Source: Candidatus Latescibacterota bacterium (GTDB lineage Bacteria; Latescibacterota; UBA2968). Taken from it: 64,000 bases of DNA. The position numbers and the translations under genes are program-made. Numbering within the stretch: the first letter of the stretch is position 1; every line of letters begins with the position of its first letter. The notes below the pieces were generated by a model. The model was not told where the DNA came from. It made no database searches and was given only the letters and a program-made list of their open reading frames with translations. Positions 10,573 through 36,484 of this stretch are shown piece by piece. The stretch covers positions 4,608,001 to 4,672,000 of the forward strand of contig OZ242195.1 in NCBI GenBank assembly GCA_965205975.1, written 5' to 3'.

Positions 10573-11652
10573 TCATATAAATTCTCGCAGATTGATTTGC
10601 TTCATACCCTCTTTAATATATTCTAAACTCTCACGATTTGATAAATCCAGTATGGGATGCTCAAAACCAATTTTCTCCGCCAAAATACTTGCTACTTCTT
10701 TAGTCCAGTGGGTCATACTCATTTGAACAATATTGCCATTTATGGCTTCAGCCATTTGGACAATACGACTGCGTTCACCAATTCTATCCACTAAAATAAT
10801 TGTCGACATGTAATGTGTCTGTCTGCCCAATTCTATCTCTCTTTCAAACCTCGATACTTTGTCCAAAGATATCTCTGTATTCCCCGGCCCAATAAAACCA
10901 ATGTCGAATCTTACACCAACGCCTGGTTCGTATAGAAGGGTGGCATCACTCTCTCGTTTTGTCCCTCGGTCAGATAACCAGAAAACTTTGTTGGTCTCAT
11001 CAGTATTTTGTCGATCAATTTTTCGAAAGCCCAATAATGAGAGAAGAGAACCCAATATAAGCTTTTCAAACAACTTGCCATACATTGATTTTTCGGAACC
11101 TCTAATTGCTAATGTTTGAGTGCCAATAGCAGCAAAAAGATAGAGAATGAATGGCCAATCCACCTTGCATTCCACGTCCTGGATTTTCAAAATACCTTCG
11201 AGTTCTCCATAGTCAATTTTACATTTATCCGTAGATTGTTTAAGTGACTCCTCAAGCGCGTTGAGGTAATTATCAAATTCATTATCCCTATTTCTCAATA
11301 CATTCTGGATACTTTTTCCTGTTAGACCGATACACCATTGCAAAAAAAGTTTTCTCTCATTTGGTATTTTTGATCTTAGTTCGGTTTTTACAATCTCCGG
11401 GATCTTATCGACAAAATTCTCAATATCCTGACCAGACCTGAGAAAAGTCACAAATAGTGCTGCATTTGAAAGCGTCAATCTTCTCCGGGTCAACCCCTCG
11501 GTTAAAGAACGGATATTCCCACCGCACAGGACAGAGGTCACAACTTCTACAACGATATCCTCACCAATCCTGTCAATTACTTCAACACCTCGATACCTTG
11601 CCAGAGATTCACCAATACGAGGGATATTTTGCGATATTGTCTCATAAAACAT
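10573..11652 (-). CDS. Type II restriction endonuclease, CfrBI-like
   Basis: GSEKSMYGKLFEK, RESDATL, RFDIGFIGxGNTEISLDKVSRF; directly downstream of an MTase; AT-rich. Confidence 0.75.
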   Translation of the reverse strand: MFYETISQNIPRIGESLARYRGVEVIDRIGEDIVVEVVTSVLCGGNIRSLTEGLTRRRLTLSNAALFVTFLRSGQDIENFVDKIPEIVKTELRSKIPNERKLFLQWCIGLTGKSIQNVLRNRDNEFDNYLNALEESLKQSTDKCKIDYGELEGILKIQDVECKVDWPFILYLFAAIGTQTLAIRGSEKSMYGKLFEKLILGSLLSLLGFRKIDRQNTDETNKVFWLSDRGTKRESDATLLYEPGVGVRFDIGFIGPGNTEISLDKVSRFEREIELGRQTHYMSTIILVDRIGERSRIVQMAEAINGNIVQMSMTHWTKEVASILAEKIGFEHPILDLSNRESLEYIKEGMKQINLREFI

Positions 11653-11666
11653 TGGTTTCTCCGGTT

Positions 11667-12857
11667 CTAAAATTCAATATAGTGTTTGATGGGTGCGACT
11701 GGTTCACAGTTTATCCAATTCACCTCTTCAACTTCCTGCCGCAACCAGCTCTCAATATTCTTCTTAATTTCATTAACATAGTCTTCATTGATTTCAAATA
11801 ACACAAATCTTCTATTGAGTTTGGAGGCAGCTTGCCCAACTGTGCCAATGCCCGCAAAGGGATCGAGAATGACATCATCCTTAAACGAATAGTACCGAAT
11901 CACTTTCTCAGCAAGCTCTAAGGGGAATATTGCTGGATGTTTTTTGCTGTGAGCAGGATGAATTTTCCAGATATTGGTTACTTCATACCCATCATCAATT
12001 CGAGATTCTTTAACTCGTTTTTGATCTGGATGTTTTCTGATATGCCAATCAATCAATTTATCCGTGCTCTTCCGATAGACCAAAATATATTCTGTTATAG
12101 GGACAGATTTGTATTGCAACGGATTCCTGTCAGCCGAAAATCTTCTGCCTCGTCCGGTTGCCCAACCAGCACCTTCCGGTTTCACCCATATTATATCATC
12201 GATAAACTCAAATCCTTCTTCAATAAAAATTCTATGAATATCAAAAGGCACTGCTATTCTCTTAGAAGATTCGTTTCGACTTGCTCTGCGAATCAACACA
12301 GGCGCTATGTTTATGACAAAAAACCGTCCTTCATTTAGAACCCGATGACACTGATGTATGATTTTTCTCATTTTGAGTAAGTATTCGTCGTATTGAATGT
12401 AATCCGAATATTCAGGCCGAGCATTATAGTAAGGAGGAGATGTGAAGACGAGATCAACCGATTCAGATGGTGTCTCCGAAAGTAGTTCTTCACTATCTCC
12501 CAAACCAACCGAATTCCTCAGATTTGAAATTTTAGGTACGCCAGCTTTCTTTCTTTTTTTCGTTTTACCGTTTGTGCGTCCGAGCAATCTTGCTTCTAAG
12601 ACCTCCTTTTGAGTTGTCTTTGGTTCTTGTATCAAACTCGTATATGCATCAATTACTATCTCACCTATCTTATTGTTATCTTTACCCTTTAAGGGCACTC
12701 GCCAGAGATGGTATCGGTCATCTACTTCTGGCAGTCCAAACTCTATTGCCTTGTTAAGATCGATATTTTGCAGATAATTAGTGGAAATTTGTTTCGCATC
12801 CTCAACATTTTTCACGCGATATTTCCGCTGATCGTAAACGGTTATTTTTTTCCCCAT
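11667..12857 (-). CDS. Site-specific DNA methyltransferase, beta class (N4-C/N6-A)
   Basis: FTSPPYY motif precedes HPAIFP and [16 protein letters not shown] before ATG 12857. Confidence 0.92.
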
Positions 12858-13033
12858 AACATCTCCAATCATTCTACGAGCACAAATTAAGGAATGTTTT
12901 TTAGATATAGTCAATTTACCGAGGAAAACAAGGATTTTTTGCACTTTGCTATACTTTGAACAAGCTGTGTACAACTTCTCAAGAAGTTCATTTGGAGGAG
13001 GTAATGGATCGCATTATTCAACTTTATGACAAT

Positions 13034-23275: not shown

Positions 23276-25683
<2,408 letters not shown>

Positions 25684-25735
25684 AATTGTAGCTGATTATA
25701 TTGTTTGGGATTATCACGAGAGGAGGAGGCGAGAT

Positions 25736-26395
25736 ATGAATATGCGGTGGATCATTGGTTTGTTTTTTGTCGGGTGTGTTATAGTACAACAGGTCTGGGC
25801 GGAGACGTCATTGGGGTTGCCGGTTGAGGGTGTGCAGACGATTGTGTTGCGCAATGAGGTGGGTAAGAATCAGATTCGGTTTGTGAGTTCGGCACCGCTG
25901 GAGGAGATCCACGGTACAGCGGCGGAGATTTCGGGCGAGTTGATACTGGATCCGACAAATTTGGAGGGTATGGCCGGGAAGATTGAGGTGCAGGTTGCGA
26001 GTATGGAGACGGGTATCGAGAAGCGTGACGCGCATTTGCATAGCGCGGATTGGTTGGATGAAAAACAGTTTCCGGTGATTGTGTTTGAGATTGCAGGGTT
26101 GAAGGATGTGTCTGTGGAGGGAGGAAAAGATAGGGCTGTGATTAAGGGTTTGGCAATGGGGACGTTTTCACTGCACGGCGTGGCGAAGGAGATGGAGATT
26201 CCTTTTGAGGCGACGTATTTGCTGGCGTCGGAGCAGACAAAGAAGCGCGCGCCAGGAGATTTTTTTGTGGTGAAGGGCGAGTTTCAGATTGCGTTGAAGG
26301 ATTTTGATATTGCAGGTGCGCGCGGGCTGGTGGGTAATCGGGTTGGGAAGAAGATCGATTTGAAGACAAATTTTTTTGGTTCTACAAGGCGGTGA
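25736..26395 (+). CDS. YceI family protein
   Basis: AGGAGG RBS; signal peptide; TGIEKRDAHLHSADW, LHGVAKE, DFDI. Confidence 0.9.
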   Translation: MNMRWIIGLFFVGCVIVQQVWAETSLGLPVEGVQTIVLRNEVGKNQIRFVSSAPLEEIHGTAAEISGELILDPTNLEGMAGKIEVQVASMETGIEKRDAHLHSADWLDEKQFPVIVFEIAGLKDVSVEGGKDRAVIKGLAMGTFSLHGVAKEMEIPFEATYLLASEQTKKRAPGDFFVVKGEFQIALKDFDIAGARGLVGNRVGKKIDLKTNFFGSTRR

Positions 26396-26593: not shown

Positions 26594-26631
26594 AATAAGA
26601 GATATTCGGAAGGAATAAGAGATATGCGGAA
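26594..26631 (+). promoter_or_regulatory. 18-bp direct repeat with 20-bp period, candidate regulator site
   Basis: AATAAGAGATATTCGGAA / AATAAGAGATATGCGGAA just upstream of TTGAAC..TATTAT. Confidence 0.5.
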
Positions 26632-26785
26632 TCTTTTTGGGTTGAACTTATAGACGCGATGGTATTATCATAAAAAAGCCGCTGGCAAGACTCGGCTAAG
26701 TCAACTGTCAGCGGCAGCAAATATCTCAAGCTGATAACTTGAGAAGGTTAAACAAAGGTAGCGACCTGAAGCGCGATTGTCAATG

Positions 26786-26831
26786 TGAATATAATGTTCA
26801 ATCGAAAATAGAAAAGTGAACGATGTGTTCA
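26786..26831 (+). promoter_or_regulatory. Tandem TGAAY-N5-GTTCA palindromes, candidate enhancer (UAS)
   Basis: TGAAT-ATAAT-GTTCA at 26786 and TGAAC-GATGT-GTTCA at 26817, 31 bp apart. Confidence 0.55.
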
Positions 26832-26929
26832 CTTCTCAATTCGATAGTCAGCTTGAACTTTATTCTACGATAATCTCTATATGGAATAAAAATAACGCCT
26901 TAAAAAAATTATCATTTGAACAATTCATA

Positions 26930-26946
26930 TTGGCATACATGTTGCA
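26930..26946 (+). promoter_or_regulatory. sigma54 (-24/-12) promoter
   Basis: TTGGCATACATGTTGCA = GG-N10-GC consensus, ~100 bp upstream of ATG 27048. Confidence 0.7.
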
Positions 26947-27047
26947 TGTATCTGTTTAAGCAGTAAAAAATCTGTTTTAAATCGTGTGGAAAGTCAGGCT
27001 CTAAGCCTCAAATATTTAGACAGCGTTTTATCGCACAGGAGAAAAAT

Positions 27048-27854
27048 ATGAACAAACAGAAAATACTGATTATAGATCACGATCCCGGCATTCTATCGAC
27101 CCTTGTCGGATTTCTGAGCGATGAACCTTATGATGTATGCACAGCGAGCAATGGGAAAGAAGGGCTTGAAATTTTGAGACGAGAGAAGATCGATCTCGCT
27201 ATCGCTGAAATGTATATGGGAGGTCTTGATGGGGTCGCGCTTTTGAAGTGCGTTGCAATAGAGAAAATTCAGACAAACGTCCTGATCATGGAAAGTGTTG
27301 TGCCCATGGAAGTAGCCGAAAAAATACTCAAGGCCGGTACTGCAGGCGTATTGGACAAACCGACCAATAAGGACAGATTTTTGGCAAAGATCAAAAACTG
27401 TATCCCACTAACTGAAGTGGAATACACCGGGGCGCGGGTCCGTCAAACATCTCGTTTACTGCCCAGATCCCTTCAACAGCCATTGAACGCTGGTCGAGAG
27501 AAGGTTTCACCAGAGGCGTTGGAATCATTTTTGGAGGAGCGTTACAGAGATCCAGGCCTGAAATTTGAAGACCTCACGCGCTGTTTTGATATCTCGCTAT
27601 CGCGTGGTCACGCGCTGTTCAGAAAATATTTTGACAGGACCTTCCGTGAAAAACTGAGGGAGGTCAGAATAGCGCAGGCAGAGCATTTTTTAACACACTC
27701 ATCACTGTTGATATATGAAATTGCACGCCTATGTGGGTTTCGCGGATCAAATCGTTTCTCCGAGGATTTCAAGAGGATACATGGCTTTTCTCCTACCCAG
27801 TATCGTAAAAAATTTATGCGCGGAGCAATTCAGTCGTTTTCGGAAGATGTTTGA
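27048..27854 (+). CDS. Atypical receiver domain + AraC-family HTH regulator
   Basis: KILIIDHD..DLAIAEMYM..DG..KP receiver fold with Asp replaced by Glu; C-terminal IYEIARLCGF..F...FKRIHGFSPTQYR. Confidence 0.85.
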   Translation: MNKQKILIIDHDPGILSTLVGFLSDEPYDVCTASNGKEGLEILRREKIDLAIAEMYMGGLDGVALLKCVAIEKIQTNVLIMESVVPMEVAEKILKAGTAGVLDKPTNKDRFLAKIKNCIPLTEVEYTGARVRQTSRLLPRSLQQPLNAGREKVSPEALESFLEERYRDPGLKFEDLTRCFDISLSRGHALFRKYFDRTFREKLREVRIAQAEHFLTHSSLLIYEIARLCGFRGSNRFSEDFKRIHGFSPTQYRKKFMRGAIQSFSEDV

Positions 27855-27909
27855 GTTGTATGTTCATTTGGTCGGTCTAATTCACTTTTAACAGTGGGCT
27901 GGATGAGTT

Positions 27910-29190
27910 ATGGCACAGAGTGAAAAGATTGTAAGGTTCAATGGCTATCCCCAAAAAGAGGTGTCTTTTGAAAACACAGAGGCGCGAGAGGCCCTCTCAA
28001 CTTCAGGAATTGGTTTCCGGTTTGTGCGCTATTTCTTGCTCACCATTTTGTGCGTGGTGGGTAGCATGGCCGCGCTGATTGGTCTTTTGGGCTGGCATCT
28101 GGGCATGGAAATCACGGTTGCAGGGCAAGGTCGCTTGCAGCCCACTGCGCGTTATGAAGTGAAAGCACAACGATCGGGCTTGATCCAGACTGTTCATGTG
28201 CAACACGGACAAGAGATTGCACAGGATGATTTGATGCTGACTTTGGATGATACCGATTTGCGTACGGAATTGGAACAACTCGAACATGAATTAGCGATGA
28301 ATCAGAGTCGGCGTGTGGCTCTGGTTGCAGAATTGCAACGCGAGCGTGCCGTTTTGGAGACAGAGATTGCAGGATCTGAAGTGGCGTATGAGACAGCGAG
28401 GTTGCAATTGGAACAGGTCCGGCAAGAATACCAGATCTACCGCAAATACGCGCCTTATCGCGAGGATGGGAGTGTGCGGCCGCCTGTTGATACCTTGATT
28501 CCCATTCGGGTACACCAGACGCGGGTACAGCGTACAAAAGTGGAGATTGAGCGGGCAAAACGGCGGCTGGTCGCTCTGGACAATCGCAAGCAGGAACACG
28601 AGATGCTAAAACAAACATACAAAAAATTACAGGTCAGCCATCGCCTTGTCAAAACTCGTATGGAACAAATGAAGATCTATGCCCCTGTTTCTGGAACTGT
28701 GTTGACGCGCGATTTGGATAAACGCGAGGGCGACCGCATAGAGGCGGGTGAAGCCGTGATTGAATTGGCCGAACTGCACAGTTGGCAAGCTGAGGTGATG
28801 ATTCAAGAAGTGGATATTCCAAAGGTGAAAGAGGGGCATAAGGTGCGGATATATGTGAATGCATTTCCCCATATGGAATACAAGATTTTTGAGGGAAGGG
28901 TGACAGATGTTCCGAGAAAACCCGAGCCTATCACACCTATGGGCGCCGGTCTCGTACCGGGCGGTATGAGTACTGTTTATCCGGTGAAGATTAGTGTGAT
29001 AGATCCACATTTATCTGACGGAGAATGTCCGCTTGCTTATGGCATGGGTGTGGAAGCTAAGATCGTGACAGAGCGCGGTCCTATCGTTGACTTGCTGTGG
29101 AAGAAGTTTCTGAAAACCGTAGGCAAAATCGGTCGCCCTGAGATTTATCGGTTGGAAGAATCTCCTGAAACTGCACAGATCAGGAACTGA
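27910..29190 (+). CDS. HlyD family membrane-fusion protein
   Basis: N-terminal TM, lipoyl-like half motifs, long coiled coil, IYAPVSGTV, GMGVEAKI. Confidence 0.92.
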   Translation: MAQSEKIVRFNGYPQKEVSFENTEAREALSTSGIGFRFVRYFLLTILCVVGSMAALIGLLGWHLGMEITVAGQGRLQPTARYEVKAQRSGLIQTVHVQHGQEIAQDDLMLTLDDTDLRTELEQLEHELAMNQSRRVALVAELQRERAVLETEIAGSEVAYETARLQLEQVRQEYQIYRKYAPYREDGSVRPPVDTLIPIRVHQTRVQRTKVEIERAKRRLVALDNRKQEHEMLKQTYKKLQVSHRLVKTRMEQMKIYAPVSGTVLTRDLDKREGDRIEAGEAVIELAELHSWQAEVMIQEVDIPKVKEGHKVRIYVNAFPHMEYKIFEGRVTDVPRKPEPITPMGAGLVPGGMSTVYPVKISVIDPHLSDGECPLAYGMGVEAKIVTERGPIVDLLWKKFLKTVGKIGRPEIYRLEESPETAQIRN

Positions 29191-29192
29191 AC

Positions 29193-30908
29193 GTGCGCCA
29201 AATACTCAAAATCATCAAAATGCTCCGTCCTTACTGGCGGTTTATCTTCCAGTCCCTCCTCGTGGGCATCATGGTTATGTTCTTACGAATCCCAGGACCG
29301 TATATCACTAAGGTTTTGATTGACGACGTGTATCCCCACAAAGATTACACGCTCCTGACCTTCATTCTGGTTATAGGTGCTGTGATTTCGACGGGATTGG
29401 GATTTACAAATTTGTTGAGCACTTATTTTAGTCGTTATGTGGGTGTCAACATGGGACTGGATTTCAAATCTCGATTTTATTCCCATGTGCAATCGCAGGA
29501 CTTCAGCTTTTTCGACAATCGGCAGACGGGAGAAATCCTGTCTCGATTCAGGGATATGGACAGATCTATTGGCAGTACCATTGGAATGGTGAACAGCCTG
29601 ATTATGAACACGCTTCAGTTGCTCATTTTCCCGCCCATTTTGCTCTACATCAATTGGAAACTCGCCTTACTCAGTCTGGCAGTGCTGCCTTTTGATACGG
29701 TATTGATTATCGTGTCAAAAAAATACCTCAGCAGGGTTTCAAAAAAATTGACCGAAGCCTCTGCCGAATTATCTGCCAAGTCCTATGAATCGCTTTCGGG
29801 CATTCGCACTGTGCAAGCACTGGGACTGGAAGCCGCATTTTATCACAAGCTCAGAGACATCTTTCTCAATGTTGCAAAATTGCGAATTCGATCAACCCAT
29901 TTAAGTGGTGGATTTGGGTTTATAGGATCGTTGGTGAAAACAGCGGGTACGTTGGCGTATGGTTGGTACGGTTGGACGCAAGTTCTATCGGGCAATCTCT
30001 CTCTGGGTAGTTATATGGCCTTTTCAGGTTATGTGGGGTATCTCTACGGTCCAATCGGCAATCTCATCGGTCTCGTGGGGCAGGTTGAAATGGCTCTGGT
30101 TCGCATCAATCGTTTTTTTGAAGTTTATGACTTGAGACCCGAAATTCAGGATCGTCCTGATATGCCCGCCTTGCCACAGGCCAGGGGCGAGATCGGTTTT
30201 CACGATGTGAGTTTTTCGTATCAGGAAGATCAACCCGTTTTGCACCACATCAACCTTCACATCCCTGCCCAGGCCACCATTGCACTGGTCGGCAAGAGTG
30301 GGTCTGGCAAATCAACACTTGCCAAATTGATCCCGAGATTTTATGATCCGCAAGAGGGATATGTGTCTATTGATGGGTACGATATTCGAAACTATCGCTT
30401 GAAATCCATCCGGCAGCAGGTTGGATTTGCGATGCAAGGCAGCACCTTGTTTCAAGGTAGTATTTTGGATAACCTGACCTTTGGACACGATATACCCCTG
30501 CGAGACGTCCAGGATGCGACACAGGCTGCGTACATCCACGACTTTATCGCATCATTGCCCGAAGGATATGAAACACTGGTAGGAGAACAGGGGGCGCAGA
30601 TGTCGGAAGGGCAGAAACAGCGCATTGCCCTATCGCGTGTGCTGTTGATGGACACGCCCATTTTGATTTTGGATGAGCCTACAGCCGCGCTGGATATGGA
30701 ATCCGAATATCACATCCAGGAGGCATTGAAAACCGTGCGACAAGGAAGGACAACAATCATCATCGCACATCGGCTTTCAACGATTCAAAATGCAGATGAG
30801 ATTGTGGTATTGGATGAGGGACAGATCGCAGAGCAGGGCACGCATGAATGGTTAGCCATGCAAGATGGGGCTTATGCCCGTTTATATGAAAAAACAGCGA
30901 GTATATGA
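29193..30908 (+). CDS. ABC exporter permease/ATPase without C39 peptidase domain
   Basis: GTG start; 6-TM domain; GKSGSGKS, MSEGQKQRIAL, LDEPT, IAHRLST. Confidence 0.93.
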   Translation: MRQILKIIKMLRPYWRFIFQSLLVGIMVMFLRIPGPYITKVLIDDVYPHKDYTLLTFILVIGAVISTGLGFTNLLSTYFSRYVGVNMGLDFKSRFYSHVQSQDFSFFDNRQTGEILSRFRDMDRSIGSTIGMVNSLIMNTLQLLIFPPILLYINWKLALLSLAVLPFDTVLIIVSKKYLSRVSKKLTEASAELSAKSYESLSGIRTVQALGLEAAFYHKLRDIFLNVAKLRIRSTHLSGGFGFIGSLVKTAGTLAYGWYGWTQVLSGNLSLGSYMAFSGYVGYLYGPIGNLIGLVGQVEMALVRINRFFEVYDLRPEIQDRPDMPALPQARGEIGFHDVSFSYQEDQPVLHHINLHIPAQATIALVGKSGSGKSTLAKLIPRFYDPQEGYVSIDGYDIRNYRLKSIRQQVGFAMQGSTLFQGSILDNLTFGHDIPLRDVQDATQAAYIHDFIASLPEGYETLVGEQGAQMSEGQKQRIALSRVLLMDTPILILDEPTAALDMESEYHIQEALKTVRQGRTTIIIAHRLSTIQNADEIVVLDEGQIAEQGTHEWLAMQDGAYARLYEKTASI

Positions 30909-31038
30909 TATGCAATGGTGTACAAAACGTCATTCCTGTCATCCCGTAGTGATGTAATATGGGATACAATACTGTTCCTGCTTGGGACAAGCGGGGGGCA
31001 GTTCATTAGGTCGTTGGGTCTTTATTTTTTAAAAGGAA

Positions 31039-31788
31039 ATGAAAATGCAAGATAGCAAAATAGATGTAGGTGATGATTTGGAATTTGATGATACTCAGCA
31101 ACTCCCTTGGTCAATTAAAAAATTAGTCCTGTGGTTGGTTTTATACTTGGTAATTAGTGTTGGTAGTGGTGCTCCCTTTGGCTTCTTAATGGCACATTTT
31201 AATCATGTCAATAAATGGGGTTTAACGGTTCAAGATATTGTACTTATCGGGCAAACATATCTCAATCTGGTTTTTATACTTGCCTTTCTTGCCTTTCTTA
31301 TATGGCGATGCAAGAAAGTGGATTTATCGCTCAGGACAATTTGGGGGAGCTATGCTCCTCAAGTTCAATATATCATTTTTGCCTTAACTTACGGGGTTTT
31401 AATGTCCCTTTTATGGAACTGGAAAGTCGTAAATTTTGACACTCCTCCCCCCAAATATCCTGATGCGATATTTTATGGCTACGTGATAGTTGCAGGTCTT
31501 TTCGGTCCCTTTATAGAAGAATTATACTTTCGCGGCCTGCTGTATAGAACCTTGTGCAAACGTTATGTGGAACGAAATGCTATTTTGATTTCAGCCGTCA
31601 TTTTTGCAGCGTACCATTTTCAATACTGGTTAGAGATTACGAATCTCCTCTTCGTATTTTTGTTTGGTGTTGTGACAGCATTTTTGGTAAGACGTACAAA
31701 TTCACTTACTGCCAGCTTTTTGCTTCACTCTATTGCAAATTTGATCCATGTGGTGGTTTTTCAGTATAGAGAATTTTTTTTGCTGTAA
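31039..31788 (+). CDS. CPBP/CAAX (Abi) family intramembrane glutamic endopeptidase
   Basis: PFIEELYFRG, FAAYH, HSIAN motifs; multi-TM; AT-rich. Confidence 0.9.
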   Translation: MKMQDSKIDVGDDLEFDDTQQLPWSIKKLVLWLVLYLVISVGSGAPFGFLMAHFNHVNKWGLTVQDIVLIGQTYLNLVFILAFLAFLIWRCKKVDLSLRTIWGSYAPQVQYIIFALTYGVLMSLLWNWKVVNFDTPPPKYPDAIFYGYVIVAGLFGPFIEELYFRGLLYRTLCKRYVERNAILISAVIFAAYHFQYWLEITNLLFVFLFGVVTAFLVRRTNSLTASFLLHSIANLIHVVVFQYREFFLL

Positions 31789-31826
31789 TAAGAGGTCATC
31801 ATCACTTTTCAAGAAAGGAGCAAACC

Positions 31827-32249
31827 ATGAGATTTCTCAAAAAAATCTCGCTATCTCCGTATGCAGATAGCATTCACAATGTTATAGCATATTCAGGAGA
31901 AGAAGAAGATTATAGAGACGACCTTGACCTTTGGGCGCAAGGAGATGCAGAAACTCAAGCAGGCCGAGATGAGGCAATTGCTGGTTTTCAGGCAGCGGTA
32001 GCTGAGAGAGAGGCTGAGAGAGAGGCTGAGAGAGAGCTTGCCCAGTCTCTCGAATATTATCAGCGTCAACTGTGTATCCAAGAGGCACATGAAGATGCCG
32101 CAGATATAGTTGCAGTAAGCGCGGCAGGTGGTGTTATTCTAGGTGGGGGAACAGGAGCACTAATTGGTGGGGGTGTGGCGGCATACGCAGGCTGCTATAA
32201 AAGTTGCCATGATCAAAGTCCTCCATCGGGATGTAACGATGGTGGTTAG
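31827..32249 (+). CDS. Putative bacteriocin/RiPP precursor (acidic N-region, Gly-zipper and Cys-containing C-region)
   Basis: AAAGGAG RBS; 140 aa; AAGGVILGGGTGALIGGGVAAYAGCYKSC; lies between exporter/Abi genes and the enzyme genes. Confidence 0.6.
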   Translation: MRFLKKISLSPYADSIHNVIAYSGEEEDYRDDLDLWAQGDAETQAGRDEAIAGFQAAVAEREAEREAERELAQSLEYYQRQLCIQEAHEDAADIVAVSAAGGVILGGGTGALIGGGVAAYAGCYKSCHDQSPPSGCNDGG

Positions 32250-32315
32250 ATCAAATCTGAGATTTGATCGCTGACAGCCGATCCGAAAAACTAAAATAGA
32301 TGGCCTCTGAACATC

Positions 32316-32364
32316 GGGTGTTCAATGCTTACCGAATTGTCAAACAGGTAAGTGTTGAACACTC
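32316..32364 (+). other. 18-bp RNA stem-loop downstream of the precursor gene
   Basis: GGGTGTTCAATGCTTACC pairs with GGTAAGTGTTGAACACTC using G-U pairs; no U-tract; smaller hairpin at 32249-32269. Confidence 0.65.
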
Positions 32365-32449
32365 ATAATAAATTTCTCGATGATTGTGAAAACCAATCCC
32401 TTAGCCGCTAACTTCGTTATGTCAATAGTGATTCAGGGGATAGACAAGT

Positions 32450-33172
32450 ATGTACAACATTATTCGCCTTCAACCTGATGAGGCAGAAAATTTTGCAGCG
32501 TTTCTCAATGATCTCTATACCCATCATTGGTCGCTCACCTCTTATGCTTATCAAAGAGAGCCAGTTTCAAAACTCATACATTTTGAAACATTGATTGAGG
32601 AACTTAATGAGCATAAGCATGTCTCCATTTTTCTACTAAAAAAATATGATCGCATCATTTCATCCATAAAAATAACTCAAAAGGAATCTGAGTCCGATGT
32701 GCTCATTTTTTCTCATGTAGAAACCCATCCCGACTTTCAAAAACGCGGGATTTTTGGGCTTACACTGGCAGATACGTGTTTAAGAACCGCCTGTGAATCT
32801 GATTGTAAACGCATTGAAATTACGACCTGGTCGTTCAATCGAAAAGGGATTCCACTTTATAAACGCTATGGATTTCGTGCGATACCAGGCACCAATCTTT
32901 TGATGGAAAATTATCTGCCAGCTATTGTGAAGCATGTAGATGCACAACCCTATTTTGCTCGCCATGATTATATTCGCACACTCTATAACAAACGCAGTTA
33001 TGGTTATGATGCTGTTGAAATGAATGGCTTAAGTGTCTTTGAGTATCGCTGGAAGCCAAGAAGGGCTGATGACACATTGCGCGTGTTGGTCGATTGGAAA
33101 AAAAAGGAAATCATTGATGTGGAATGCAAGGTCGTGGATTCATCACCATTAGTTAGAGAATGTCATGCGTAA
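32450..33172 (+). CDS. GNAT family N-acyltransferase
   Basis: VETHPDFQKRGI, NRKGIPLYKRYGF; C-terminal extension. Confidence 0.88.
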   Translation: MYNIIRLQPDEAENFAAFLNDLYTHHWSLTSYAYQREPVSKLIHFETLIEELNEHKHVSIFLLKKYDRIISSIKITQKESESDVLIFSHVETHPDFQKRGIFGLTLADTCLRTACESDCKRIEITTWSFNRKGIPLYKRYGFRAIPGTNLLMENYLPAIVKHVDAQPYFARHDYIRTLYNKRSYGYDAVEMNGLSVFEYRWKPRRADDTLRVLVDWKKKEIIDVECKVVDSSPLVRECHA

Positions 33173-35066
33173 AGAAAATCCCTCTCAAATCCGGATTGCC
33201 ATTGTCGATAGCGGCATAGACGCCTCGCATTCTGGTGTGCGTGATGTTGCAGGTGGTGTTCATATTCAGATTGGTAAAGACAGTAAGACTGTGTTTTTGG
33301 ATGATCACGCCGATTGTGCAGGACATGGTACAGCGTGTGCCGGGATTATTCGGAAGAAGGCTCCTGATGCAGCACTATATAGCGTGCGGATTTTTGATGC
33401 GTCTTTGATGGCGGATGGGCGGGCGTTGATTGCCGCGATTCAGTGGTGCATTGACAATGAGATAGGTGTGGTGAATTTGAGCCTGGGCACGACGGATGTG
33501 ACGTTTAAGGAGGGTCTCCAAAAGGTGTGCCGCAAAGCGGTTGACGCTGGCGTGATTCTCGTAGCTGCCGAGAGTAATGACGGGCGTGAGAGTTATCCTG
33601 CGATATTTTCCGAAGTAATTGGTGTGACTGGTGGTGCGATTTATGAACCAGACGGATTTTATTACCGCAAAGATCATCGCATCGAATGTGTGGCGCGAGG
33701 GGATGAACAGCGCGTGTGCTGGTTAAACGGAAAATATATTATGACTGGGGGTAATAGCTTTGCTGCGCCCCATATTACAGGCATTATCGCACGCCTGTTG
33801 GAACAGCATCCAAAATGTTCGGTTCAAGATATTCGGTTATTATTAAAAGAAAAAGCATTAAACGAAATATCTCAAGATCGAAATAAGTCCAAATCTGATC
33901 CTCAGATAATCCGAAAAGACTTTCAAGAGGACTATGCCTATATCAAAAAAGCCGTGTTGTATCCGTATAACAAAGAGATGCACAGCATGGTGCGCTATCG
34001 CGATTTGCTCGCGTTTGAGATTGTCGGGATCGCCGATCCCATTGGCAAGGGCATGGTGGGCAAAGATGCAGGCAAGGTGATTGGGGAACCGCAGGCAAAT
34101 CTGCGGATCAGTCCGAATATACGCCGCGCAATGGCAGATGCGGATACGCTCATTCTCGGCTATGTGGATCAACTATCTCGCATCCGCAAGCGCGATTTGC
34201 TCAGAGAATATGTGCAATTAGCTCTTGATGAGGGATGCCATGTGTTCAGTTTTCAGGCACTTGATCCAAACCTTTACGGCGACCTGTATGACATAGCGGA
34301 CAAAAAGGGACTGCGCCTTGCCTATCCCCATATTCATAGAGAAGAACTTGCACAGGCAATTCAAAATTTCAACGCGCTCCCACCTGTGGATGTGCCTGTA
34401 CTTTCAGTGATGGGGACGAGTTCTCAACAGGGCAAGTTCACTTTGCAACTCGCGCTCAGGCGCAGGCTCATCCAAAAGGGCTATAAAGTAGGGCAGATCG
34501 GCACTGAGCATCACGCTCGGTTATTTGGCATGGATGCTGCGTTTCCAATGGGCTACGCTTCGCCGCTCAAACTGCCATTTCAACATTACATACCGTATTT
34601 GGATTACAAAATGCGAGAAATTTGCCAGCGCACACAACCCGATATTATTCTGAATGGCTCTCAATCGGGGACCATTCCCTATCATGTCCAGGAACACAGT
34701 ACACATTGCTTGTCTTCACTGGCGTTTTTATTGGGGGTAAAACCCGATGCCTGCATTTTGGTGGTCAACAGCATTGATGCTGAAGAGTATATCCGCGATA
34801 CAATTGATGGCATACGTGCCGTGTGCAAAGCACCGACTATCTTGCTGGCGATGGGCGACCACGAAAAACACATCCGAACAGCTTATGGACGCAGTATGAT
34901 CACGCCCAAAAAGATGGCACAATCTCAAATTGATCAGCACTTAAAAAAACTACAAGATACGTTTTGTGTGCCTGCGATTGAGATTCTTTCAGAGACGGGT
35001 CAACGGTGTCTTGTGGAAACTGTGATTCAATATTTTTCAAAGGGTGATACATCAACTATCGCATAG
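33165..35066 (+). CDS. Cytoplasmic S8 serine peptidase fused to a DUF1611-like (Rossmann + P-loop) domain
   Basis: IVDSG / HGTACAG / GNSFAAP triad; no signal peptide; C-half VMGTSSQQGKFT, GQIGTE, GSQSG, LLGVKPDA. Confidence 0.8.
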   Translation: MRKENPSQIRIAIVDSGIDASHSGVRDVAGGVHIQIGKDSKTVFLDDHADCAGHGTACAGIIRKKAPDAALYSVRIFDASLMADGRALIAAIQWCIDNEIGVVNLSLGTTDVTFKEGLQKVCRKAVDAGVILVAAESNDGRESYPAIFSEVIGVTGGAIYEPDGFYYRKDHRIECVARGDEQRVCWLNGKYIMTGGNSFAAPHITGIIARLLEQHPKCSVQDIRLLLKEKALNEISQDRNKSKSDPQIIRKDFQEDYAYIKKAVLYPYNKEMHSMVRYRDLLAFEIVGIADPIGKGMVGKDAGKVIGEPQANLRISPNIRRAMADADTLILGYVDQLSRIRKRDLLREYVQLALDEGCHVFSFQALDPNLYGDLYDIADKKGLRLAYPHIHREELAQAIQNFNALPPVDVPVLSVMGTSSQQGKFTLQLALRRRLIQKGYKVGQIGTEHHARLFGMDAAFPMGYASPLKLPFQHYIPYLDYKMREICQRTQPDIILNGSQSGTIPYHVQEHSTHCLSSLAFLLGVKPDACILVVNSIDAEEYIRDTIDGIRAVCKAPTILLAMGDHEKHIRTAYGRSMITPKKMAQSQIDQHLKKLQDTFCVPAIEILSETGQRCLVETVIQYFSKGDTSTIA

Positions 35067-35074
35067 GAGGGGTT

Positions 35075-35353
35075 ATGTCTATTGAACATCGGGTTAAACA
35101 GGTGATCATTCGCACTTTGTCTCTTGAAGTTGACGCAGACGAAATTGACGATGAAGACGAGCTTTTTGGAGGTGGCCTGGGGATTAATTCGATGGCGACG
35201 ATTGAGATCATTGTGGGTCTGGAAGAGGAGTTTGACATTGAGGTGCCAGATGAAGATTTGCGCGTGGAAATATTTGATAGCGTGCAAACCATGGCCGACT
35301 ATGTTCGCGCAGTGTTACAGAAGGTACCTGAGGTCGCCGGACAGATAGAATAG
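35075..35353 (+). CDS. Acyl carrier protein
   Basis: Acidic 92 aa; LGINSMATIEIIVGLEEEFDIEV retains the phosphopantetheine Ser; AGGAGG RBS. Confidence 0.9.
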   Translation: MSIEHRVKQVIIRTLSLEVDADEIDDEDELFGGGLGINSMATIEIIVGLEEEFDIEVPDEDLRVEIFDSVQTMADYVRAVLQKVPEVAGQIE

Positions 35354-35397
35354 ATTTTTCGCTCGCACTTAGATGATACAGATTTTGAGATAGATCC

Positions 35398-36417
35398 ATG
35401 AAAAAATCGCTTCCCATAGAGGTATCCCCACCCATCCACGGCTATCCCCGCCATGGCTATCGGCTTTCGATTATGTCGCTTCAGGATGATTATATTCCCT
35501 GGTTCTTCTGCAATTATATCCAACTATTCGCCGTTGACCTGTTGCATGAGAGCAAACACAATATCCGATTCAACTTCTATTTTCAGGGTCCGTACTCCCC
35601 GCCGTGGCTGTCTATCTACACCGTTCCGAGGCGATCAATTGTCAGAGTCTATCATCAGATTGTGCCGTTTATTCGCGATCAAATTGATGAGGGCTTCTAT
35701 GTCCAGTTGATAGCTGATGAGTATTTTCTGCCGCATACGCCGTTTTATGAGAAAATACACAATCCACATACTATCCTGGTATTCGGATACGATGATCAAA
35801 TGGAAACGCTTGAGACTCTGGGATTCAATAGAGCGGGGGATTACTCTGTTTCAAGGGTTGGGTATTCAGAATTTGAAGCGGCGTTTTGCTGGATTGATCC
35901 CGAGAAACGCAGATCGTACCGGATAGACCTGTTTGAGTATAACGAGGACGGTGTCTATGAGTTTGACATTGACGCTGTCAGAGATCAGTTGCGAGCGTAC
36001 ATCCATTCTGAGAATCCGTCTATCCACTACCGGACGTTGCGTAAGCCAGTTGAAGGCGTCTTTGGGATGGCGACGTATAAGCTCTTGCGAGATTATTTTA
36101 CGCATTTGTTTGTCCATCCCCGGCTGTGGGATCGGCGGCATCTGTTCACGCTTTGGGAGCACAAGCGTTGTATGTTAAACAGGCTTGCTTATCTGGAAGA
36201 GCACGGGTATTTGCGTCCGTCTGACCAGTATCATCAGGCGTATAAGGAGGTTGAACACAAGGCGCATCAGGTTCATCTGATGATGCTCAAATTGCGAGCG
36301 TTGGTGAAGGTCAAGAGAGCGTGGGATGTGGATCGTATTCTGAAGATTATCACCTCGTTAGATGATATTTCTCAAAGGGAAGAGCGCATTCTGAAGAATG
36401 TTTTGAAGGCTCTTTGA
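35398..36417 (+). CDS. BtrH-like (papain/C39-like fold) protein, possible ACP-dependent acyltransferase
   Basis: WFFCNYIQL and DEYFLP..FY...HNPHTILVFGYDD pattern; helical C-terminus; adjacent to ACP. Confidence 0.5.
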   Translation: MKKSLPIEVSPPIHGYPRHGYRLSIMSLQDDYIPWFFCNYIQLFAVDLLHESKHNIRFNFYFQGPYSPPWLSIYTVPRRSIVRVYHQIVPFIRDQIDEGFYVQLIADEYFLPHTPFYEKIHNPHTILVFGYDDQMETLETLGFNRAGDYSVSRVGYSEFEAAFCWIDPEKRRSYRIDLFEYNEDGVYEFDIDAVRDQLRAYIHSENPSIHYRTLRKPVEGVFGMATYKLLRDYFTHLFVHPRLWDRRHLFTLWEHKRCMLNRLAYLEEHGYLRPSDQYHQAYKEVEHKAHQVHLMMLKLRALVKVKRAWDVDRILKIITSLDDISQREERILKNVLKAL

Positions 36418-36439
36418 GGCGCGTACACGATAGCACATA

Positions 36440-36484
36440 AAATCCCCTATTGCGCGTTATTGCGATGGGGGATTGGTTTTTTTT
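36440..36484. terminator. Imperfect terminator closing the cluster
   Basis: AATCCCCTATTGCG..TTGCGATGGGGGATT followed by T-run, between convergent genes. Confidence 0.55.

Follow-up and report, generated by a model that had tools for sequence, protein, structure and literature searches.

Separable export and maturation modules, the latter with an S8-DUF1611 fusion and an acyl carrier protein, in a nine-gene peptide block of a Latescibacterota genome

The subject of this analysis is a nine-gene block (27048-36417, + strand) in a stretch of 64,000 nucleotides from a Candidatus Latescibacterota bacterium (contig OZ242195.1, positions 4,608,001 to 4,672,000). This whole stretch is called the window, and coordinates without a locus or genome label refer to it. 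The block is made up of two separable modules. One is an export cassette consisting of a response regulator, an HlyD-type adaptor, a peptidase-less ATP-binding cassette (ABC) exporter, a CPBP intramembrane protease and a peptide precursor. The other is a portable maturation module in which an S8 protease fused to a DUF1611 domain is encoded with a Ser-bearing acyl carrier protein (ACP), the optional members being a GNAT acetyltransferase and a BtrH-like protein. Together, the two modules may cut, acylate and export the precursor while the CPBP protein protects the producer, an account that, taken whole, we give an even chance of being correct.

Separation of the two modules

Eight members of the family of the window's core peptide were found, all in related loci. 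The four that bear a leader (window, L007, L015 and L016) are all found in cassettes that also encode S8-DUF1611 and an ACP, and the four that are leaderless (L021, L204, L200 and L203) all lie in HlyD/ABC/CPBP cassettes without maturation genes. One leaderless cassette occupies, in genome G088, the same site between yceI and a DUF58 gene as the window block, and one leaderless member is found in a genome (G057, 98% complete) without a match to the S8-DUF1611 family. A preliminary description of this DNA had treated the nine genes as one integrated system, a view that the existence of such five-gene cassettes does not support. Because of this 4-versus-4 split, the leader appears to be part of the maturation module and is likely not needed for export. 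The idea of the leader as an export signal was rejected, since leaderless cargo accompanies exporters that are 92% identical.

Some points weigh against so clean a division. The split is not built of independent cases, the loci being kin, and both G000 and G088 carry S8-DUF1611 elsewhere, where the enzyme may serve in trans. The leaderless copies could be decaying, and their existence suggests that an N-terminal cap is dispensable.

A paralogous five-gene cassette at L021:8886-14224 (G000:C1 ~1,820,900-1,826,200) carries a regulator, HlyD, CPBP, a leaderless precursor and ABC. Its exporter is 92% identical to that of the window, and the HlyD paralog at G000:1.82 Mb is also 92% identical. Inspection by eye of the start of its precursor revealed a remnant of leader-coding DNA in another frame, suggesting leader loss by deletion.

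The surroundings of the fusion were compared in 52 loci (55 chosen minus three duplicates), which are kin and not independent, and whose genes were labelled by BLAST to the proteins of this analysis, so that more remote members may have escaped notice. S8-DUF1611 has an ACP at most 1.5 kb away in 43 of these loci and at most 9 kb away in 47; the other neighbours are ABC (45), HlyD (26), a BtrH-like protein of the window type (25), GNAT (8) and radical SAM (4). The S8-DUF1611 family is abundant in uncultured Latescibacterota: the TIGR04066-like domain occurs in 86 of 168 genomes of the phylum, with at most seven matches each and none over the cut-off, mostly within open frames of ~640 aa. A profile search returned 728 protein clusters (50% identity) at E<=1e-30. 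Among 80 distant metagenome loci, the 42 that are at least 9.5 kb long carry an ACP in 33 cases (32 with Ser) and a radical SAM gene in 33, as counted from maps; the taxonomy of these distant homologs rests on plasmid records and appearance. Since the neighbours (radical SAM, DUF692, BtrH-like) differ between loci, the module appears to plug into varied tailoring contexts, and the window holds the version with no tailoring enzyme besides GNAT.

Other copies illustrate this variety. A Bacillus mycoides plasmid (NZ_CP036025.1; L100:3056-9966) encodes an ABC protein, an ACP, two 44-aa precursors, an S8-DUF1611 fusion (31% identity), a DUF692 enzyme, a hypothetical protein and a BtrH-like protein, and this species is a culturable host of the module. 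A second paralogous set of S8-DUF1611, ACP and BtrH-like genes (L022:8691-16353; G000:C1 ~2.157-2.172 Mb) lies with three glycosyltransferases and Cys/Trp-rich peptides that have a VLAY leader, possibly a glycosylated variant. A third S8-DUF1611 and ACP paralog (L023:4213-16446; G000:C1 ~3.074-3.086 Mb) has IYGY-leader peptides and adjoins a SPASM radical SAM gene with its own 58-aa candidate precursor. This radical SAM gene was rejected as a fixed partner of the 3.08-Mb paralog, none being present within 20 kb in two of the four loci of the clade (L081 and L093). At L024:2094-11947 and L025:5081-12813, two cassettes combine ABC exporters of ~1000 aa with HlyD, CPBP and several small peptides of the double-Gly type by glycosyltransferase-like genes.

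The precursor and its leader

The 140-aa open reading frame (ORF; 31827-32249, +), which has no Pfam family, had been proposed as the precursor, and comparative evidence backs a gene of this type. A basic leader of 22 aa ending in VIAY (31827-31892, +) precedes an acidic core of 118 aa (31893-32249, +; 12.25 kDa) that starts with SGEEED and contains four Cys and one Lys. In other loci, the same slot beside the same enzyme is filled by ORFs with a basic N-terminus ending in V/I-x-A/G-Y, followed by unrelated acidic cores. A motif score retrieved 34 leaders upstream of 22 core families, with cores of 41-138 aa, 11 of the 34 without Cys. An ending in Y/F was a filter in this collection; A/G stands at -2 in 33 leaders and Y at -1 in all. 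The leader subtype follows the enzyme clade, with xYGY in 4/4 loci of one clade.

In a held-out two-block leader score, for which the 12 training leaders were all taken from other genomes, a peptide encoded 8 kb away from an S8-DUF1611 paralog came first, and the window precursor tenth, among 65,950 N-termini of their own genome. The window leader scored 14.7, and the annotated CLI_3235 precursor of C. pasteurianum 14.8. On the other side of the balance, a local version of the test based on a hidden Markov model (HMM) failed to recover the window precursor, two leaders of the xYGY type ranked just 117-118, and leaders were detected in only 26 of the 52 loci. TIGR04065 had no match at E<=5 among 12 precursors of the window type, and a protein atlas returned only matches below 0.9 for the precursor.

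Based on the leader family, S8 would cut the leader off after Tyr22, and we regard cleavage after xxAY as highly probable. The comparative evidence makes S8 the likely leader peptidase, in keeping with the cutting role first suggested for it.

The core contains a Gly-zipper (32118-32189, +) and a C-x3-C-H..PP motif (32193-32210, +), and His88, Cys123, Cys127, His128, Pro132 and Pro133 are invariant in all eight members of the family. The C-x2/3-C-H motif (window 32193-32210; L204:1060-1455; L200:1108-1458; L066:13608-13991) takes the canonical form CxxCH in some members of the family and in one unrelated core. It may form a disulfide or bind metal or heme.

The S8-DUF1611 fusion and its carrier protein

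The fusion (33165-35066, +; Pfam) opens with a QhpE-like S8 domain (33165-33875, +; NF049966, 157.6 bits with a cut-off of 165) that begins at residue 8, too close to the start for a signal peptide or propeptide to precede it, and its triad D15/H54/S198 is invariant (40/40). The DUF1611/TIGR04066-like domain (33936-35066, +), placed by profile matches, alignment and a model, carries the P-loop GTSSQQGKFT, in which the Lys is also invariant (40/40). Four profiles named in the preliminary description bear on these labels: DUF1611 (PF07755) exceeds its cut-off (33.2 bits, cut-off 25), whereas TIGR04066 (129 bits over its full length, cut-off 200), TIGR04069 (17.3 bits, cut-off 70) and BtrH_N (25.9 bits, cut-off 29.7) fall below theirs. 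The resemblance to TIGR04066 and TIGR04069 pointed out in the preliminary description holds. The model of the DUF1611 domain (predicted local distance difference test, pLDDT, 87.8) has a two-domain fold with a P-loop and matches the structures 2G0T (Z 29.4), 2OBN (Z 28.3) and DgcN (7XRJ, Z 25.2), the last over 305 residues with a root-mean-square deviation of 3.7. DgcN is an N-acetyltransferase with acetyl-CoA as its donor. It functions in the catabolism of free D-glutamate (PMC12363236).

The stand-alone ACP (35075-35353, +; PP-binding, 42.7 bits) is canonical, rather than of the TIGR04069 type. Its attachment Ser39 (GINS) is invariant in 23/23 aligned Latescibacterota ACPs. In pairwise identity, the ACP follows S8-DUF1611 (rho 0.73, 40 loci), whereas the BtrH-like protein (rho 0.14, 19 loci) and ABC (rho 0.16, 32 loci) do not. 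A complex prediction for the DUF1611 domain with the ACP scored 0.02, which counts neither for nor against their pairing. The genome contains a phosphopantetheinyl transferase gene.

We propose that the ACP would be loaded in trans and that the fused DUF1611 domain would move the ACP-borne acyl group onto the freed N-terminal Ser. Because the BtrH-like protein appears to lack a catalytic Cys and the GNAT is rare (8/52), DUF1611 is, judging by its model, likely the acylating enzyme and the best candidate for this role; N-acylation by DUF1611 from the ACP is itself a proposition that we hold to be evenly balanced.

The following observations tell against acylation. ATPases and ligases, e.g. BioD and CTP synthase, are also matched by this P-loop domain (Z 13-15; next rows at most 15.3), and identity to DgcN is only 18%. 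The correlation seen for the ACP may reflect adjacency, and the loci, being kin, are not independent in this respect either. A scan of the neighbours that recur (46 and 23 proteins) revealed no acyl-loading enzyme, and both clostridial TIGR04069-type carriers examined are without Ser. These last two points, together with the invariant P-loop Lys and the leaderless cassettes without the module, would suit a system that only cuts, in which S8 removes the leader, DUF1611 binds nucleotide, holds the substrate or regulates, the ACP is a non-covalent partner and the cargo stays unacylated; indeed, the clostridial carrier homologs adjoin TIGR04066 despite having no Ser. We consider this unlikely, if far from negligible, given that the Ser is kept in all of the aligned Latescibacterota ACPs and in 32 of the 33 ACPs of the distant metagenome loci, that the DgcN match is full-length, and that a leader and protease which together give the product of a leaderless gene would gain little.

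Export and the role of the cargo

With acylation from the ACP as the preferred reading, the ABC/HlyD pair would then export the product with a TolC-type channel encoded elsewhere. TolC-type proteins are encoded in the genome, and export by this route, with a signal outside the leader, is probable. The exported Gly-zipper product would likely act on membranes, and the cognate CPBP would protect the producer. The CPBP/Abi intramembrane protease (31039-31788, +; Pfam Rce1-like) contains the catalytic motifs EELYFR, FAAYH and HSIAN. Its family adjoins the window core family in 6/6 loci examined, and other core families are mostly paired with a CPBP family of their own. This is the pattern expected of either cognate immunity or cognate processing. 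The pairing has exceptions that count against it (in core family 2, a CPBP is adjacent in 1/5), and we lean only slightly towards an antibacterial cargo with CPBP as its immunity protein.

Alternatively, the cargo could be a signal or metal-binding peptide, with the cognate protease CPBP freeing the Gly-zipper/C-x2-3-C-H part and the REC-AraC regulator sensing the product. The catalytic motifs kept in CPBP, the His/Cys/Cys/His set invariant in 8/8 members and the response regulator at the head of the cassette would all fit such a role. We find it improbable, since hypervariable cores swap at one chromosomal site together with matching membrane-protein genes, which is the pattern of toxin-immunity pairs, and since the block is without a kinase. 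Moreover, a Gly-zipper cargo with type I export and a membrane immunity protein is the arrangement of the Cdz system (PMC5380434), and the window too has a small Gly-zipper cargo beside ABC and HlyD genes.

The BtrH-like protein and the GNAT

Three acyltransferase candidates had been put forward on an equal footing; two of them, GNAT and the BtrH-like protein, are now likely to be optional accessories, the BtrH-like protein probably being non-catalytic or non-Cys. The GNAT (32450-33172, +; Pfam Acetyltransf_1) ends over the start codon of S8. The BtrH-like protein (35398-36417, +) owes its label to structure matches (Foldseek and VIA): its model (pLDDT 74) matches CcbD (Z 16.9), CtaG (Z 15.4) and AziU (Z 15.0), while searching the PDB by sequence gave no match. 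CtaG, BtrH and AsbE depend on a Cys-His-Asp triad (PMC12865890). The window protein contains no Cys in residues 1-34, an alignment of 20 homologs shows no column of conserved Cys in this stretch, and the Cys of four canonical neighbours is without a counterpart at the start of helix 1 when placed by hand alignment, hhalign having left this segment unaligned. Two BtrH-like types (~90% and ~38% identity) alternate beside near-identical S8-DUF1611/ACP pairs, swapping independently of them.

That the GNAT or the BtrH-like protein moves the acyl group from the ACP in one nine-gene pathway, as first supposed, is therefore quite improbable, given the missing triad Cys, the exchange of BtrH-like types and a GNAT of limited occurrence facing a core with one Lys, and this in spite of the fold of carrier-dependent ligases, a His124 kept in 18/20 homologs, a Cys/Ser column at residue 38 (18/20) as a possible alternative nucleophile, the overlap of GNAT with S8 and the recurrence of the BtrH-like protein in 25/52 loci, on Bacillus plasmids and in metagenome loci. 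RTX-type acylation was rejected: neither HlyC nor an RTX cargo family is found among the nine proteins, and the ABC protein reaches 376 bits against an HlyB cut-off of 726.

In L061, L062, L070, L072 and L076, canonical Cys-bearing BtrH_N + DUF4872 proteins are encoded downstream of the ACP, four of these genes sitting behind an unknown ORF of 207-211 aa. In L058:6495-9209, L067 and L075, a PP-binding + Condensation protein directly follows the ACP, a possible alternative route of transfer.

Layout and insertion site of the block

The nine ORFs lie on the same strand in the order first described. The cassette begins with the REC-AraC response regulator (27048-27854, +; Pfam Response_reg + HTH_18), and no kinase gene lies within the block. 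The HlyD-type adaptor (27910-29190, +; HlyD_3/HlyD_D23) and the ABC exporter of 571 aa (29193-30908, +; ABC_membrane + ABC_tran) follow; the Pfam matches of the exporter include no C39 peptidase domain. In gene order, the intergenic gaps are 55, 2, 130, 38, 200, -8, 8 and 44 nt, the -8 being the GNAT-S8 overlap. A 16-bp inverted repeat 3' of the precursor (32318-32362, +) could form a hairpin in the transcript, and a hairpin resembling an intrinsic terminator (hairpin 36441-36474, whole feature 36441-36484, +; 14-pair stem and T run) lies at the end of the block. Pfam backs all labels other than those of the 140-aa ORF and BtrH_N. No match to LanM, YcaO, radical SAM, nonribosomal peptide synthetase/polyketide synthase or acyl ligase was found among the nine proteins (Pfam, NCBIfam), as the preliminary description had stated.

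The block is flanked by yceI (25676-26395, +) upstream and the DUF58 gene (- strand) downstream, and its GC content is 45.3% compared with 50.9% for the genome. In 21 genomes of the same genus, the yceI-DUF58 spacing is at most 1 kb in 6, 6-15 kb in 10 and not joinable in 5. Because the site is empty in these 6 genomes, the block is an insertion between the two genes, as had been claimed; occupied sites hold differing cargo genes. The nearest relatives are mostly titled Ca. Latescibacterota metagenome-assembled genomes. A promoter scan gave results at chance level (15 found, 19 expected), and no RNA dataset is listed for the block. Contigs from two runs cover the block, with rearranged variants, and have no bearing on expression. 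Elsewhere in the window, a low-GC stretch (10573-12872; 38-44%) contains two ORFs of 359 and 401 aa on the - strand.

Comparison with known systems and significance

Several known systems share parts of this arrangement. The window's DUF1611 domain shares its two-domain fold, Rossmann-like + P-loop, along its full length with the DgcN/DUF1611 structures (7XRJ, 2G0T and 2OBN; Z 25-29). It differs from them in being joined to a protease next to an ACP and in sequence, identity being 14-19%. The CtaG/CcbD/BtrH ligases and AziU2/U3 share with the BtrH-like protein a papain-like N-domain and a helical C-domain; unlike the ligases, the window protein has no evident nucleophile Cys and is not co-inherited with the ACP. 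Cdz of Caulobacter (PMC5380434) has a small Gly-zipper cargo, a type I-like exporter and an adjacent membrane protein, but here there is one cargo gene and the membrane protein is a CPBP; in addition, the proteins of Cdz are, by their description, probably free of modification, and a maturation module is possible in this cassette. The selidamides (GNAT; PMC8784127, PMC13647313) and the lipoavitides, which are hybrids of fatty acids with peptides that are made on ribosomes and modified after translation (bioRxiv 10.1101/2023.10.25.564083), also start from a ribosomal precursor, here predicted to be acylated. The selidamide enzyme KspN uses acyl-CoA to acylate the side chains of Lys/Orn, and the accessible part of that source mentions neither "ACP" nor "DUF" (PMC13647313).

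From its sequence, the block reads as a variant of the TIGR04065/66/68/69 (SacP23-type) system that has a large cargo and lacks a radical SAM enzyme. The earlier label of a "new system" was thus an overstatement, while the kinship with the described CLI_3235/TIGR04066/TIGR04069 system stands. A basic leader ending in xxA(Y/F) is shared with both CLI_3235/CcpM (TIGR04065/04066/04068/04069 + S8 + ABC) and SacP23 of Paenibacillus polymyxa (PMC10731318), the SacP23 precursor having the same leader shape with the ending IEAF. CLI_3235/CcpM also has a TIGR04066-like domain, a carrier-like protein, a subtilase and an ABC exporter in common with the window. The differences are that the window block has no radical SAM gene (present in 4/52 sampled Latescibacterota loci), that S8 and the TIGR04066 domain form one fusion protein, that the ACP retains its Ser, that the core is acidic and 118 aa long rather than short and Cys-rich, that HlyD and a cognate CPBP are present in addition, and that all family models of CLI_3235/CcpM are below cut-off here. 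SacP23 has an Edman-blocked N-terminus and a cluster with TIGR04066, TIGR04069 and S8 (PMC10731318), which speaks for N-acylation in the window system. Against this, its authors give other reasons for the blockage, and because both clostridial carriers are without Ser, a carrier is not necessarily the source of the blocked end.

TIGR04066 and TIGR04069 have so far been catalogued beside radical-SAM peptide genes with no reaction assigned, and one product paper calls TIGR04066 a possible immunity protein. A reaction for TIGR04066/DUF1611 in peptide maturation was not found in the literature covered, outside which most subscription journals fall. To this system, the locus adds a radical-SAM-free, large-cargo form and a natural split between leader with module and leaderless cargo. 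Because it is without a radical SAM enzyme, the module stands isolated here and its reaction becomes testable with three small genes. We tentatively propose, at somewhat less than even confidence, that S8-DUF1611 and ACP form an undescribed cut-and-cap class, which N-acylates any cargo with a 20-residue xxAY tag, across phyla. If true, such a class would make N-acylated ribosomal peptides and small lipoproteins, and would plug into cassettes of the radical-SAM and DUF692 types as well as into those of unmodified Gly-zipper toxins. Leader-directed, cargo-tolerant N-terminal acylation would then offer a new way of making ribosomal lipopeptides and possibly a tool for protein lipidation, and it would account for both the orphan TIGR04066/TIGR04069 genes and the blocked N-terminus of SacP23.

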